Below are positions 2,960-44,443 of a stretch of 64,000 bases of DNA, piece after piece. The notes below the pieces were generated by a model, which had not been told where the DNA came from, did not search any database, and saw only the letters and a list, made by a program, of their open reading frames with translations. Position numbers and translations under genes: made by a program. Position 1 is the first letter of the stretch. The number at the start of each line of letters is the position of its first letter. Source of the DNA: Lachnospiraceae bacterium (GTDB lineage Bacteria; Bacillota; Clostridia; Lachnospirales; Lachnospiraceae); NCBI GenBank assembly GCA_051879015.1, contig JBJELF010000040.1, positions 2,823 to 66,822 on the forward strand, given 5' to 3'.

Positions 2960-4612
2960 ATGTCATTTACTCACCTGCATGTGCATACCGAATACAGCTT
3001 GCTGGACGGCTCATGTAAAGTGAAGGAATTGGTACAGAGAGCCAAGGATTTGGGAATGGACAGTCTTGCCATCACAGATCATGGTGTTATGTACGGTGTA
3101 ATTGATTTTTATCACGCAGCCAAAGAAATTGGCATTAAGCCGATTATTGGCTGCGAAGTTTATGTAGCTCCAGGTTCTCGCTTTGACCGAGAAAAAAATG
3201 TCAATGGAGATGACCGATATTATCATCTGATTTTATTGGCAGAAAATGACTTGGGATATCACAATCTAATGAAGATTGTTTCTTACGGATTTACAGAAGG
3301 ATATTATTATCGTCCACGTGTCGATAAGGAAATTTTGAGAACCTATCATGAGGGCATTATCTGTTTGAGTGCCTGCCTGGCGGGCGAAGTACAGCGCTAT
3401 TTGGCTAGGGATCAGTATGAGGAGGCAAAGGAGAAAGCCCTTGAATATCAAGAAATTTTTGGAAAAGGAAATTATTTTCTGGAATTGCAGGACCATGGAA
3501 TTCCAATGCAGCGCACTGTCAATACCAGCTTGCTGCGTATGAGCCGAGAACTGCAGATTCCGTTGGTAGCCACCAATGATATTCATTATATCAATGCCAG
3601 TGATGCAGAAGCTCACGATGTTTTGCTCTGTATTCAAACCGGAAAAAAAGTCAGTGACGAAAATCGTATGCGTTACGAGGGCGGACAGTATTATCTTAAG
3701 TCGGAACAAGAGATGAGGGAGCTGTTTCCTTATGCTCAGCAAGCTTTAGATAACACTCACCGTATTGCAGAGCGCTGCAGCGTGGAGATTGAGTTTGGTG
3801 TACAGAAGCTTCCCAAATTTCATGTTCCAGAGGGGTATACGGCTTGGGAGTATCTCAATAAGCTCTGTGAGGAGGGAATGTATCAGCGTTATCCCGATGC
3901 AACGCCGAAATTGTGGGACAAACTTTACTATGAGTTAGACACTATCAAAAATATGGGATATGTGGATTATTTCCTGATTGTGTGGGATTTCATTCGTTTT
4001 GCCCGCAGTAAGGATATCATGGTAGGACCAGGGCGTGGCTCCGCAGCTGGCAGTATTGTTGCTTACACTTTGGGGATCACCAACATTGACCCAATTCGTT
4101 ATGATTTGATTTTTGAGCGATTTTTAAACCCAGAGCGTGTTTCCATGCCTGATATTGATGTGGATTTTTGTTTTGAGCGCCGTCAGGAGGTTATTGATTA
4201 TGTTATTGAAACTTATGGTAAGCGGCAGGTGGCTCAAATTGTGACTTTTGGTACCATGGCTGCTCGCGGTGTCATCCGTGATGTGGGGCGTGTGCTGGAT
4301 TATCCTTACGCGTATTGTGACAGCGTGTCAAAGATGATTCCTGCTGAACTCAATATTACTATTGAGAAAGCATTGAAGATGAATCCTGAGTTAAAGCAGC
4401 TTTACGATACCGATGAGCGTACCAAAAACCTGATTGATATGTCCCTTCGTTTGGAGGGATTGCCAAGGCACACTTCCATGCATGCAGCCGGTGTGGTGAT
4501 TAGTCAAAAGCAGGTCGAGGAGTATGTACCCTTGTCGAGAGGTTCTGACGGTTCGGTAGTTACTCAGTATGTTATGACCACATTAGAGGAGTTAGGTCTT
4601 CTTAAGATGGAT
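2960..4612 (+). CDS. dnaE: DNA polymerase III alpha subunit DnaE, exon 1 (PHP domain and first part of the palm; 551 codons)
   Basis: MSFTHLHVHTEYSLLDG PHP motif and the SMPDIDVDFCFERR palm aspartates. It ends ...EELGLLKMD. The listed ORF then reads 6 codons into the intron (VRIVR, stop at 4628-4630). Confidence 0.9.
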
Positions 4613-5669
4613 GTGCGAATTGTTCGCTAACGAAACACTCCAGAAATGGAAACAAGTTAGCGGAGCAAGGAAATGAAATATTTGAGTACAGTTGGTACAA
4701 AAGTGGCTAGAGCCGCCTGCTGGAAAAAATAAAGTAAGGAACTTGTTTAACTGTTTGTTTGATTAGAATAGTGAAATTCTATTTGTTGGGTAAAGGTCGA
4801 TACCCAATCCCCTAAGACTCCGTTATGCTGTTTGGTCTTAATGCCAAATGGTATAAAGCACGGTGAAGTCGGCTGAAAAGTGCCTAAATGGCTGAAATAT
4901 ATCAGTAGTATTGGTATAAAAGTGGCTAGAGCCCACCTGTATGAAAGTATAAAGTAAAAAGTATGGTGGCGAAGTAAATCGGGGGTCCTTAAGAGAAATC
5001 TTTAAAATATAATATGCCTACACATCAGGAACTACCGTATGAAAGGCTCGTAATTTAAGACCGAAACGAAAGTTTCGTTGTCCCAATTGGGATTTTAGTC
5101 GCAGTAATTTTATTGTCCATTGAGATTACTGTACTTAACCAGTAAGGGTTAAGTGTTCTTATTCCATTCGACTAACGGAAGAAAGAATGTCTAACGGGTT
5201 AAAGGTAGAGGCTAAGTTATAATAATAAAGGATAGAACAAACGGAACAATTGAACCCTAAAAGAAAATGTTAATGCTATTAAGAGCAGATGTTTCTAACA
5301 AGTAGGAAATGACTTGTGAATTTAGGGGGCAGCAGCCCATAGTAGCGATGAAGCGGAGTAATGTCCGTGGAGCGAAGGGGCATAGTCGTAGATTAGAATA
5401 TTGTAAGATAGGTTTAAGACTAAATCCTGCAATGGAGTCTGAAAAGGCATACCTTGAAGGAATAATCATTGAAATCTTAGGAATGGAAATCTACAATAAT
5501 GTAGAATAAGGGTATAATAATCAATTCTGACAATATTCGAAAATAGATTACCGAAGTCTATTCATCTACGCTGGAACGCCGTGTGCGGTGAAAGCCGCAC
5601 GCACGGTGTGAAGTGGGGGAAAACGACCCGTAACAGAAAATGCTGACGGTGTTCGTTACCTATCACTAT
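4613..5669 (+). mobile_element. ORF-less group II intron (dnaE intron 1, 1057 nt)
   Basis: 5' end is GTGCG. Domain V at 5576-5609 is ACGCCGUGU-GCGGU-GAAA-GCCGC-AC-GCACGGUGU (34 nt, GAAA tetraloop, 2-nt AC bulge). The domain VI basal stem pairs AGUGGGGG (5612-5619) with CCU-A-UCACU (5659-5667), with a bulged A at 5662, the 8th nt from the 3' end. The 3' end is UAU. There are stops in all frames and no ORF over 70 aa. Excision joins KMD to FLGLRTL. Confidence 0.8.
5576..5669 (+). ncRNA. Intron 1 catalytic domain V plus extended domain VI
   Basis: Read directly from the sequence as described for intron 1. The lower D5 helix begins A-CGC, so the triad is CGC rather than AGC. D6 spans about 58 nt, compared with the usual roughly 35 nt. 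Confidence 0.7.
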
Positions 5670-6270
5670 TTTTTGGGATTGCGTACACTGACGGTCATTC
5701 AAAATGCTGTGAAAAATGTAAAGAAAAATCGTGGTATTGACATTGATATCGACCATATTAATTTTGATGACAGGAAGGTCTTTGATTCTGTTGGTACAGG
5801 TAGATGTGAAGGTATTTTTCAATTAGAAAGTTCGGGCATGAAAAATTTCATGAAGGAATTAAGACCAGAAAATTTGGAAGATATCATAGCAGGTATTTCC
5901 CTGTATCGTCCAGGACCGATGGAGTTTATTCCAAAGTATTTAAAAGGGAAAAATGCCAAGGATTCGATTCAGTATGACTGTCCTCAGCTTGAGCCAATTT
6001 TGAAACCAACCTACGGGTGTATTATTTATCAAGAGCAGGTCATGCAAATTGTTCGTGATTTGGCGGGCTACACTCTTGGACGAAGCGATTTGGTGCGCCG
6101 TGCCATGTCCAAGAAAAAAACAAAAGTTATGGAACAGGAACGCAAAAACTTTGTATACGGAAACGAGGCAGAGGGAGTCAGAGGCTGTGTTGCCAATGGC
6201 ATTAGCGAGAAGACAGCCAATCAAATTTATGATGAAATGATTGATTTTGCAAAATATGCCTTTAATAAGT
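5670..6270 (+). CDS. dnaE: DNA polymerase III alpha subunit DnaE, exon 2 (601 nt)
   Basis: Begins FLGLRTLTVIQ and contains GIFQLESSGM, ISLYRPGPME, IIYQEQVMQI and LVRRAMSKKK. It ends ...DFAKYAFNK plus the first nt of the Ser codon. The ORF-track residues before F (MLTVFVTYHY) are intron sequence. Confidence 0.9.
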
Positions 6271-7234
6271 GTTCGACCCGTTCTAGCTTTAAATAAACAA
6301 AGAGCTAGCACTCTTTTAGGAGTAAGAAACTAAAAATAGGAGAACTAATAATCTGATTGAGTGGAATGATGGAGTAACGCCCTGAAACACTCTCCCTAAT
6401 ACTCCGACTGGCTACACAAGAGGAAACTCTAGTAGTTAGAAGTTCGGTGAAGTCGGCAGAAGTAAACCTAAACTGATTAAAAATCAAGAGTAACATTGGT
6501 ACAAAAGAGCCTAGAGGATGCCTGTGTGAAAAAAGATATAATAAAGGCATGGTTTATGATATGCCGGGGGTCTACAAAATACCTATGGTGAGAATGTCGT
6601 GGCATCTACACGGCTGACGAACCAGCGAATTTAAGAGTCTATATGAAGCTTATAGGGAAACCCATAAGGACGCAGATGCGTCGTTGGTGTGGATTAGTAA
6701 GAATTTTTGTTATGAAACTCCATACAGTGTTATAGGCACTGTCAAGCCAACAGGATCAGAGCTAGGCACCTAAGGGTATATATGTACAGATAAGATTATT
6801 GGTACGGGGAAAGGTATCAGGCTGAGTTAATCGGTAAGTGGACGAAGAATAATAAGCCACTGAACTGGTGCCGAAAAGTAGAGGTCGCACCTATGAAATT
6901 TCTGTAATGGAAATGGAGGAATGGCCTCAAGTCGGTATAAGAATAATAGGATATTTAAGCACCTATAAAAATGCCAGATGGGTTAATGATAAATCCATAG
7001 AAAGGAACACCACAAGGAGGAATTATTTCGCCAAAACGGAACAATTGCTTACAACCGTGTAACAAACAATTCAAAATAGGTGTTTTGTTAATCTCTATAC
7101 CAACATGGATGAACTAGCATAGTTGTGTTGGTTGAATTCTATATCGATGGAACGCCGGATGCGCTGAAAGGTGCATGTCCGGTGTGGACCGGGGGAAAAA
7201 CTGGAGATCACATCAAAGGTTTACCTATCGGTAT
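6271..7234 (+). mobile_element. ORF-less group II intron (dnaE intron 2, 964 nt), homologous to intron 1
   Basis: 5' end is GTTCG; a register shift of 1-2 nt would encode the same protein. Domain V at 7153-7186 is ACGCCGGAU-GCGCU-GAAA-GGUGC-AU-GUCCGGUGU. The domain VI basal stem pairs ACCGGGGG (7189-7196) with CCU-A-UCGGU (7224-7232), with a bulged A at 7227, the 8th nt from the 3' end. The 3' end is UAU. It shares CGGTGAAGTCGGC, TTGGTACAAAAG.G.CTAGAG, GGGGGTC and TTACCTATC blocks with intron 1. No ORF over 81 aa. Confidence 0.8.
7153..7234 (+). ncRNA. Intron 2 catalytic domain V plus extended domain VI
   Basis: Same architecture as in intron 1, including the flanking CTGGAACGCC / GATGGAACGCC context, the CGC triad and the GGGGGAAAA start of D6. 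Confidence 0.7.
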
Positions 7235-8454
7235 CTCATGCTGCTGCTTATGCAGTGGTTGCCTATGAGACTGCCTGGCTCAAATATTATTATCCGGTAG
7301 AGTATATGGCAGCTTTGATGACTTCTGTGATTGAAAATGTGAGAAAAGTGTCAGATTATATGCAGACTTGCCGTCAGATGGGCATTGAAATTTTGCCCCC
7401 AGACATCAATGAAGGACAGAGTGAGTTTTCCGTTCATGGTGATAAGATTCGATACGGTCTGTCCGCACTGAAAAGCCTGGGAAAATCTGTTATTGATTCT
7501 ATAGTGGAGGAGCGAGAACAAAATGGCAAGTTTTTGACCCTCAAGGATTTTATCAGCCGCATGGAGGGCAAGGATATCAACAAGCGAGTGATTGAGAACC
7601 TGATTAAGGCTGGGGCTCTCGACAGTCTTCCTGGTAATCGTCGTCAGAAGGTGATGACTTACCCCAAAATGATGGAGCAAGTAACAAGAGAGCGCAAGGA
7701 TAATGTGATTGGGCAAATGTCCCTGTTTGATTTTGTGGAGGAAGAAGATAAAAAGGACTTGGAGATTACCTTTCCTGATGTGCCTGAATACGAGAAAAGC
7801 GAGCTGCTTGCTTTTGAGAAGGAAATCATGGGAATTTATGTCAGTGGACATCCTCTTGAGGATGATGTAGAATTATTAAAGAAAAATACCAACGCTGAAA
7901 CAAAGATGCTGTGGGCAGATGAAGAGACTGGAGAGATTCTGTTAAAGGAAGGAATGACATGCCGCATTGGAGGTTTGATTACAGATAAAACTGTGCGCCC
8001 TACCAAGAATAACCAGATGATGGCATTTTTTACATTGGAGGATATGAAAGGGAGCGTGGAAGTGGTGGTCTTTCCCAAAATTTACGAGAGATACCGGGGC
8101 TCCATTGAAATTGAGAAGAAAGTGCTGGTAGAAGGACGTGTTAGCCCGGGAACGGATGAGCAGGCAAAATTAGTTTGTGAAAAAATTATCCCATTTGAGG
8201 AGATCCCAAAACAGGTATGGATTCAGTTTGAGAACTTAGATGATTGGCAGCGACAGTCTGGATTTTTTCAGCAAATGTTGGTTGGAAAAAGAGGAAATGA
8301 TCAGATTGTCATCTATATCAAAAATCCGAGGAGTTACAAGAAATTGCCGTCTTCCTGCAATATTTCTGCTACTAAAGAAAATATCGAAAATTTTGTGCAA
8401 AAATTTGGAAAAAGTAATGTGAAAGTTATAACAACTCCTATTGAAAATAAATAG
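7235..8454 (+). CDS. dnaE: DNA polymerase III alpha subunit DnaE, exon 3 (fingers, HhH and OB-fold tail)
   Basis: Begins (S)HAAAYAVVAYETAWLKYYYPVEYMAALM and continues IRYGLSALKSLG, then an OB-fold region. Stop at 8452-8454. The three exons sum to 3474 nt, or 1157 aa, a normal DnaE size. Confidence 0.9.
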
Positions 8455-44260: not shown

Positions 44261-44443
44261 TATGATACCAGGTTCAAAAGGTCATATAATTTCATGCAAG
44301 CATGAAATTGTATGACTTTGGGACCCGCTAAAACATGAGAAAGTAGCCAAAATAGGGCGATTTCTCATGTTTTCGGATTGCGTGAGCACGAAGTGCGAAG
44401 CAATCCATAAGTATCAAAGGGGCAAAATACTTTTTGAGCCTTT
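44261..44443 (+). repeat. Longest (composite) copy of the structured repeat, with four consecutive hairpins combining the family A and family B modules
   Basis: H1 pairs 44281-44297 with 44300-44316 (gtcatataatttcatgc / gcatgaaattgtatgac). H2 pairs 44330-44341 with 44362-44373 (aaaacatgagaa / ttctcatgtttt). H3 pairs 44375-44381 with 44400-44406 (ggattgc / gcaatcc). H4 spans 44416-44443 (aaaggggcaaaa-tac-tttttgagccttt). Confidence 0.75.

Follow-up and report, generated by a model that had tools for sequence, protein, structure and literature searches.

The gene dnaE, which encodes the alpha subunit of DNA polymerase III and is essential, appears as three pieces (2960-4630, 5640-6296 and 7171-8454) in the open reading frame (ORF) listing of the 64,000-nucleotide (nt) stretch of Lachnospiraceae DNA analysed here (hereinafter designated the window, to which all unmarked coordinates refer). 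The second interruption is a 964-nt ORF-less group II intron at 6271-7234 (hereinafter designated intron 2), and a second such element (hereinafter designated intron 1) lies upstream of it. The identity of intron 2 follows from Rfam matches well above threshold and from the seamless DnaE that results once both introns are removed. RF02004 (group-II-D1D4-5) matches 6340-6578 with 136.4 bits, above its curated threshold, and RF00029 (domains V and VI) matches 7150-7234 with 55.7 bits against a threshold of 40, both on the plus strand. Joining 2960-4612, 5670-6270 and 7235-8454 yields a DnaE of 1157 amino acids (aa) whose alignment with the solved Thermus aquaticus (Taq) DnaE (2hpi) runs without gaps across both junctions (...GLLKMD/FLGLRTLT... 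and ...FNKS/HAAAY...; here and below a slash marks a junction). Intron 2 is inserted in phase 1, after the first base of the Ser codon in the conserved DnaE motif FNKSH. Intron 1 directly follows the codon of an Asp that aligns with Taq DnaE residue 618, which we take to be the third catalytic Asp. Overall, it is very probable that intron 2 is an ORF-less IIB intron descended from a site-specific mobile intron by deletion of domain IV, with an intact ribozyme that is spliced as proposed below. The gene is laid out as follows.

2960-4612, plus strand: dnaE exon 1, aa 1-551, ending ...LLKMD (spliced translation and 2hpi alignment)
4613-5669, plus strand: intron 1, group II, ORF-less, 1057 nt, GUGCG...CACUAU
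5670-6270, plus strand: dnaE exon 2, encoding aa 552-751 and ending with the first base of the split Ser codon
6271-7234, plus strand: intron 2, GUUCG...GGUAU, class B-like (Rfam, five same-site homologues, six-domain consensus fold)
7235-8454, plus strand: dnaE exon 3, completing the Ser codon and continuing with HAAAY...; C7235 is intron-binding site (IBS) 3

A preliminary description of this DNA, made from the sequence alone, had proposed a search for further members of the family in the genome and in related Clostridia. Species-representative genomes were searched with a pattern built from two domain I blocks, and the loci then with the spliced DnaE: at least 118 family loci were recovered, overwhelmingly from Bacillota, and in other Clostridia introns lie at exactly the same two dnaE positions. 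Site 1, the position of intron 1, is occupied at loci L075 (a Blautia metagenome-assembled genome, MAG), L047, L030 and L057, and site 2, the position of intron 2, at L033 (a Lachnospiraceae MAG), L025, L043, L085 and L095. Most of these same-site relatives are 2.7-3.0 kb long and carry stop-to-stop ORFs of 626-639 aa; at site 2, the introns of L033, L025, L043 and L085 measure 2.8-2.9 kb with an ORF of 635-639 aa. The intron-encoded protein (IEP) of L033 matches Pfam RVT_1 with E = 1e-41, and the L033 and L075 IEPs, the two that were scanned, combine a strong RVT_1 match with a C-terminal HNH match of 20.8-21.0 bits, just below the 21.4-bit cut-off. Intron 2 is 81-83% identical to L033, L025 and L043 in its leading 681 nt and in the terminal ~110-170 nt. 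The closest DnaE relatives of the window come from Lachnospiraceae and Blautia MAGs, and both dnaE sites are free of introns in 79 of the 80 closest metagenomic dnaE relatives; the dnaE introns are sporadic acquisitions. Two public proteins, P0101 and P0005, that had been considered as intron-flanked pieces containing only exon 2 were rejected as products of frameshifted assemblies.

The ORF of these relatives has been reduced to a remnant in intron 2:

6959-7033, plus strand: remnant of block 4 of the intron-encoded reverse transcriptase (RT), 25 codons reading APIKMPDGLMINP, an in-frame stop and KGTPQGGIISP

The remnant is 72-80% identical to the IEPs of L085, L033 and L043 (tblastn, E = 3e-6). 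Neither window intron contains an ORF longer than 86 aa, and the small ORFs of both lack a Pfam match. Because intron 2 holds this stop-interrupted remnant and has ORF-containing relatives at the same site, it is a deletion derivative of a ~2.9-kb mobile intron that encoded an RT-maturase-HNH protein. Loss of the ORF, a point absent from the preliminary description, extends to both window introns, each of which derives by deletion from an ORF-containing mobile intron. The site-2 intron of L095 (Candidatus Fimimorpha faecalis), 1430 nt long, is also ORF-less and has kept IEP residues 1-61 and 545-639 (the HNH region); this deletion differs from that in the window, so ORF loss at site 2 has happened at least twice.

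We derived a consensus structure with RNAalifold from the six site-2 introns after removal of their ORFs, which comprises 236 pairs in domains I-VI (D1-D6) and recovers the canonical six-domain fold. Within it, 96.7% of cells are paired, compared with 88.8 ± 0.5% in shuffled and 35-40% in slid controls, a fraction favoured by construction, since these six sequences also served to predict the structure; stronger evidence comes from the double-sided pair changes, of which there are 72, compared with 29 in shuffles and 6-13 in slid controls. Intron 2 retains 227 of the 236 consensus pairs, distributed among its domains as listed here.

6277-6808, plus strand: domain I (RNAalifold on the site-2 set and single-sequence fold), 139 of 142 consensus pairs kept
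6283-6308 and 6310-6323, plus strand: two hairpins between stems I(i) and I(ii), within domain I
6813-6872, plus strand: domain II, 14 of 14 pairs kept
6881-6928, plus strand: domain III, 16 of 16 pairs kept
6931-7148, plus strand: domain IV, degenerated and with its ORF deleted, 31 of 37 pairs kept
7152-7185, plus strand: domain V, ACGCCGGAUGCGCUGAAAGGUGCAUGUCCGGUGU, 34 nt with a CGC triad, a GAAA loop and a 2-nt AU bulge, 14 of 14 pairs kept
7188-7232, plus strand: domain VI with the bulged branch-point A7227, 13 of 13 pairs kept

Domain IV accounts for six of the nine lost pairs and domain I for three isolated ones, so that domains I-III, V and VI together keep 196 of 199 pairs, on a par with the ORF-containing relatives. 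The upper stem of domain VI shows compensatory changes in the site-2 consensus fold. Decay is thus confined to the domain that held the ORF and its binding site, the catalytic core and the exon-binding sites (EBSs) being preserved to the same degree as in relatives with their protein gene. The preliminary description had given domain V the right sequence and placed it one base too far downstream (7153-7186 for 7152-7185). Its bulged A7227, eighth nucleotide from the intron end, is confirmed by the Rfam alignment and also by the minimum-energy fold of 7152-7234, which has a z score of -3.3 and is equalled by none of 200 shuffles. Domain V conforms to group II introns (Rfam RF00029 and clan CL00102), whose 34-nt hairpin has an AGC or CGC triad, a 2-nt bulge and a GNRA loop; the distance of the branch-point A from the 3' end is within their range of 7-8 nt, and the end itself, ...UAU, is in keeping with their AY ending.

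The EBSs were located by a covariation screen of 46 non-redundant family introns whose flanks are known, aligned over their 5' parts, in which the best-pairing alignment column was sought for each exon position. Exon positions -1, -2, -3 and -5 each pair best with adjoining columns of a single loop (EBS1; 83-91% paired), to which the partners of -4 and -6 were assigned by position, as these were not separately top-ranked. Positions -7 to -11 point to a second run of adjoining columns (EBS2; 70-87% paired, with 5-6 pair types per column), and position +1 to a single domain I column (EBS3; 91% paired over the 46 introns, with 5 pair types). In the window, the corresponding elements of intron 2 are:

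6260-6264, plus strand: IBS2 CUUUA, in dnaE exon 2
6265-6270, plus strand: IBS1 AUAAGU, in dnaE exon 2
6644-6648, plus strand: EBS2 UGAAG, pairing with exon -7 to -11 (5 of 5)
6705-6710, plus strand: EBS1 UUUUGU, in a hairpin terminal loop, pairing with exon -1 to -6 (5 of 6)
6759, plus strand: EBS3 G, partner of C7235 at the start of exon 3

Two EBS candidates from an earlier complement search, GCUUAU at intron position 378 and AAAGGCAU with 8 bp to the exon, proved spurious, being unconserved in the homologues and superseded by the covariation screen.

The sequences show the identity, boundaries, EBSs, ORF loss and intact core of intron 2, and from these features we infer both its splicing and the kind of assistance it may receive. 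The mobile ancestor, ~2.9 kb long and encoding a protein with RT, maturase and HNH-endonuclease parts, homes specifically to this dnaE site in Lachnospiraceae and related Clostridia, and in this genome most of domain IV has been deleted together with the protein gene. In the present transcript, EBS1 (6705-6710) and EBS2 (6644-6648) would hold the 11 exon bases nearest the intron (6260-6270) by pairing, the bond before G6271 would be attacked by the 2'-OH of A7227, and the freed exon would attack after U7234, placed by the pair between EBS3 G6759 and C7235. The products would be a lariat and an mRNA with ...FNKSHAAAY... restored. The ligated intron 2 junction is predicted to read TTTAATAAGT/CTCATGCT, and joined exons would show ...TTTAATAAGT to CTCATGCTGCT... 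and ...AAGATGGAT to TTTTTGGGATT... With no maturase encoded by either intron and no RT gene in the 64 kb of the window, efficient splicing in vivo would require either a maturase supplied by an intron elsewhere in the genome or protein-independent self-splicing. That both introns are maturase-independent residents of an essential gene, through true self-splicing in vivo or a recruited host factor, seems unlikely.

Several observations weigh against this account. The window contains no RT or maturase gene; the stems of domain IV, which form the maturase-binding site in relatives, are partly broken, which may hinder help from the cognate maturase; EBS1 forms a U-U mismatch with exon position -1, one that is also found in the presumably active ORF-containing introns of L033 and L025; the 5' end of intron 2 is GUUCG rather than GUGYG, agreeing with the consensus at four of five positions (G1, U2, C4 and G5); and the class B assignment given below, drawn from structural marks and indirect sequence links, is only probable. 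The GUUCG start recurs in four other site-2 introns, three of which have intact IEP genes, and a screen of epsilon-prime for a change compensating G3-to-U met too few independent variants to be informative.

The lack of a maturase gene in the window, the degraded domain IV and the mismatch at -1, together with the disappearance of the protein genes from both introns, could also describe dead relics that no longer splice, in a dnaE copy that is a pseudogene or redundant. We consider this very unlikely. An intact core with intact EBSs counts against a relic: outside domain IV, intron 2 keeps its pairs as fully as its ORF-containing relatives do, and EBS2 and EBS3 match the exons perfectly. Moreover, all three exons are in open frame and give a full-length DnaE that is gapless against the solved structure at both junctions. 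Such preservation of frame, pairs and EBSs is not expected of a decaying element, and we retain the reading of intron 2 as a spliced intron with an intact ribozyme.

A true intron could nevertheless be cut in vivo 1-2 nt away from the boundaries used here. The preliminary description had noted three registers that all encode NKSH, and a direct reading of the sequence finds all three: GTGTTCG...CGGT (register 1), TGTTCG...GGTA (register 2) and the one it had chosen, 6271-7234 (register 3), which homologue junctions and EBS pairing scores likewise favour. Registers 2 and 3 give the same mRNA, and register 1 yields AAA in place of AAG. Register 6271-7234 is the sole one with G as the first intron base in all site-2 homologues: the 5' junction reads AAGU/GUUCG in the window, L033 and L025 and AAAU/GUUCG in L043 and L095, and L085 (AAGA/GUGCG...GGUAU/GCCAC) has the canonical GUGCG at the position of window G6271. 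Given the placement of EBS1, EBS2 and EBS3 from family covariation, only 6270/6271 and 7234/7235 fit, with EBS1 pairing at 5 of 6 positions, EBS2 at 5 of 5 and EBS3 as G-C. A shift to register 2 would leave the mRNA unchanged and replace the U-U mismatch at -1 by a G-U pair, and shifts of the 5' splice site are documented for C.te.I1 (PMC4424553); the same shift breaks the other pairing, however (EBS1 4 of 6, EBS2 3 of 5), and would make the intron start with U. Register 1 fares worse, with 3 of 6 and 1 of 5 pairs and no EBS3 pair, and in L095 and L043 the intron would begin with AUGUU instead of G. Position -1 and EBS1 also covary in register 6271-7234, as A-U in L095 and U-A in L085. Shifted splice sites are therefore highly improbable, and we keep 6271-7234 as the extent of intron 2.

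Intron 1 resembles intron 2 in its overall arrangement. Its Rfam matches, above threshold, are RF02004 at 4746-4993 (53 bits) and RF00029 at 5574-5669 (56 bits); a sub-threshold match to RF01998 (group-II-D1D4-1) at 5295-5380 (26.7 bits, threshold 35) probably reflects chance or a shared local motif. Its elements are:

4601-4606, plus strand: IBS2 CUUAAG, in dnaE exon 1
4607-4612, plus strand: IBS1 AUGGAU, in dnaE exon 1
5054-5059, plus strand: EBS2 UUUAAG, 6 of 6 with IBS2
5115-5120, plus strand: EBS1 GUCCAU, 6 of 6 with IBS1
5202, plus strand: EBS3 A5202, forming an A-U pair with U5670
5576-5609, plus strand: domain V (pattern and Rfam)
5662, plus strand: branch-point A

The preliminary description had called intron 2 a diverged homologue of intron 1 on the strength of shared blocks, and these blocks are real: CGGTGAAGTCGGC occurs at both 6445 and 4861, TTGGTAYAAAAGNGNCTAGAG has three occurrences compared with none expected, and the D1 and D5 patterns each match the two introns only. 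The substantial divergence that it had noted, arguing that neither is a recent copy of the other, is equally evident, as the introns align over 940 positions with 49.9% identity (40-45% in shuffled controls), which climbs to 55-58% within the D1 core and to 67% within D5/D6. When the site-2 consensus structure is transferred to intron 1 by sequence alignment, 59% of its pairs are kept, compared with ~43% in slid controls, and because the alignment limits this comparison, the evidence for a shared architecture lies in the Rfam models and the collinear EBS2, EBS1, EBS3, D5 and D6. The proposed homology accordingly stands at the level of intron class and family and fails as close kinship, each intron being much nearer to same-site relatives in other genomes. 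Among 46 family IEPs joined in a neighbour-joining tree, the site-1 lineage branches deepest and the site-2 lineage lies elsewhere, beside introns in recD2-like helicase genes. Transposition of one window intron from the other within this gene or genome, which the common Rfam families and sequence blocks (including a hairpin module rare in the family) might suggest, can be set aside as extremely improbable, given that intron 1 is 91-94% identical outside the ORF to the same-site 3046-nt ORF-containing intron of L075 and intron 2 81-83% identical to L033, L025 and L043, compared with ~50% between the two, that the two lineages' IEPs share no more than 32-35% identity and sit on separate branches of the tree, and that single-site genomes exist (L033 and L085 with site 2 only, L047 with site 1 only). 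The two window introns are instead independent acquisitions from separate lineages of the same class.

The hairpin module just mentioned (hereinafter designated the accessory hairpin; ~36 nt, UUGGUAYAAAAGNGNCUAGAG...CCUGU) is found in intron 1 at 4692-4712 and 4911-4931 and in intron 2 at 6496-6516. It is present in 9 of 51 family introns, all of them from either dnaE lineage or from one inhabiting recD2-like helicase genes; some hold two copies, located in separate parts of domain I. A hairpin with a covarying basal stem is formed by eleven copies. The accessory hairpin seems to have been copied or relocated within introns as a module, and a docking site for a recruited host factor is a possible role.

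With regard to class, intron 2 is of IIB type and probably of bacterial class B ('B2-like'), as judged from structural marks and indirect sequence links. Class B introns carry a pair of stem-loops separating I(i) from I(ii), D5 and D6 joined by 3 nt, a 4-bp stem under the bulged A, and a 3' splice site that follows D6 by 3-4 nt (PMC1865049). Two hairpins between I(i) and I(ii) are present in intron 2 and likewise in intron 1; the D5-D6 linker of intron 2 is GGA (7186-7188), CCGG/UCGG pairing (the slash here separating strands) lies under A7227, and the tail is UAU, with one A-U pair added in the minimum-energy fold, which leaves a 2-nt linker and a 2-nt tail. Recognition of the 3' exon is of the IIB type, via EBS3-IBS3. 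Class B is confined to Firmicutes (PMC4424553) and predominates in the Bacillus cereus group (PMC2504315), and the hosts of the present family, mainly Bacillota, are in line with this range. Published primers for the class B intron En.fm.I2 (PMC2920175) match intron 2 at 16 of 18 positions (6361-6378) and at 15 of 17 positions at the start of domain V. The family shares with En.fm.I2 of Enterococcus faecium and B.c.I4 of B. cereus the Firmicutes hosts and, in relatives, proteins with RT and weak HNH matches (PMC2920175, PMC1865049), and EBS1, EBS2 and EBS3 of the window introns are of IIB type as in those introns. Unlike En.fm.I2 and B.c.I4, the window introns lack an ORF and a domain VII 3' extension and reside in an essential chromosomal gene rather than on plasmids or transposons, and intron 2 has the 5' end GUUCG. 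Intron 2 also matches 467 plasmid records, including 214 from Bacillus and 175 from Enterococcus.

Near-identical 2759-nt family members are found in Streptococcus suis, S. mitis and related streptococci (L005, L007, L032, L034, L035, L051 and L073); they appear to start with GUUAG, not GUGYG, and to target CTAACTGAAAAG/A, boundaries that were set by pattern only. Among viral contigs there are 18 family members, none of them in dnaE. Within the window, a Clostridiales-1 RNA (RF01699, 96.6 bits) at 44263-44416 is consistent with a Clostridiales origin.

Family introns also lie in genes whose identity was read by eye from the flanks: apparent pcrA/uvrD (DEYQD/TN; ORF-less, 881-941 nt), recJ (DYDA/DG), radC (HNH/PSG; 1388 nt, presumably ORF-less), recD2-like helicases, alaS (in Clostridioides difficile) and aspartate kinase (loci L083/L119, L019, L026, L059/L088, L072 and L046). 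Since family members appear to sit in conserved motifs of other genes, the dnaE introns fit a general habit of the class. A third insertion point in dnaE, 6 nt downstream of site 2, holds a different RF02004-type intron (AAATCACATG/GUGUG...GACAU/CAGCGGCA), located at 7651-10367 of L219 and from ~718 of L223. L219 (a MAG found on at least 21 contigs) and L223/L224 combine this intron with a site-1 intron 78-94% identical to intron 1. Both dnaE introns carry RT ORFs in these alleles, and the site-1 IEP of L219 is split into 352 and 275 aa, which suggests a route of stepwise ORF loss for introns that share a gene.

The closest precedent is dnaN of Trichodesmium erythraeum, with four ORF-less introns that depend on the maturase of a related intron in RIR (PMC12584367, PMC2504315). 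In both cases several ORF-less group II introns, related to ORF-containing ones, occupy an essential gene for a DNA polymerase III subunit, and a maturase supplied in trans would be expected to serve splicing; the present case differs in being from Clostridia and not Cyanobacteria, in affecting dnaE and not dnaN, in involving two distant lineages and in the lack of a maturase donor within the window. The Trichodesmium dnaN introns are of the chloroplast-like class, and those here are class B-like. More broadly, bacterial housekeeping genes seldom contain group II introns, but cases are known from recA of Geobacillus, groEL of Azotobacter and dnaN and RIR of Trichodesmium, and in the B. cereus group they occur in polC, radC, mutS and uvrD. 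The dnaE introns share insertion in conserved motifs with class B introns in such replication and repair genes, and differ from them in that two sites of one gene are occupied and both introns are ORF-less. A different selfish element, the split DnaE intein of cyanobacteria, is inserted at ...AEY/CFNKSH, ~10 nt upstream of intron site 2 and in the ultra-conserved DnaE motif that intron 2 also occupies; it acts by protein splicing and is no RNA intron, being unrelated in mechanism and sequence, and different selfish elements thus seem to target this motif. Most bacterial group II introns lie outside housekeeping genes (PMC4424553, PMC2504315), and our search of the full-text literature found no description of group II introns in dnaE, which is weak evidence of absence. 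The arrangement of intron 2 is therefore of a rare but known kind and not a new type of element.

For the organism, the arrangement means that an essential replication enzyme is obtainable only after two splicing events by ribozymes without a helper protein of their own, so that DnaE output may be tied to a maturase made elsewhere, and automatic annotation could mistake the three-fragment dnaE for a broken gene. Should the introns prove independent of any maturase, a free-living gut Clostridium would possess 'domesticated' introns resembling those of organelles. For the family, the dnaE motifs ...KMD/FLGL... and FNKS/HAAAY emerge as recurrent class B homing sites, with at least three insertion points in use, and clear cases in essential genes such as this one help to show how retroelements settle into a splicing-only existence, as they have in organelles.

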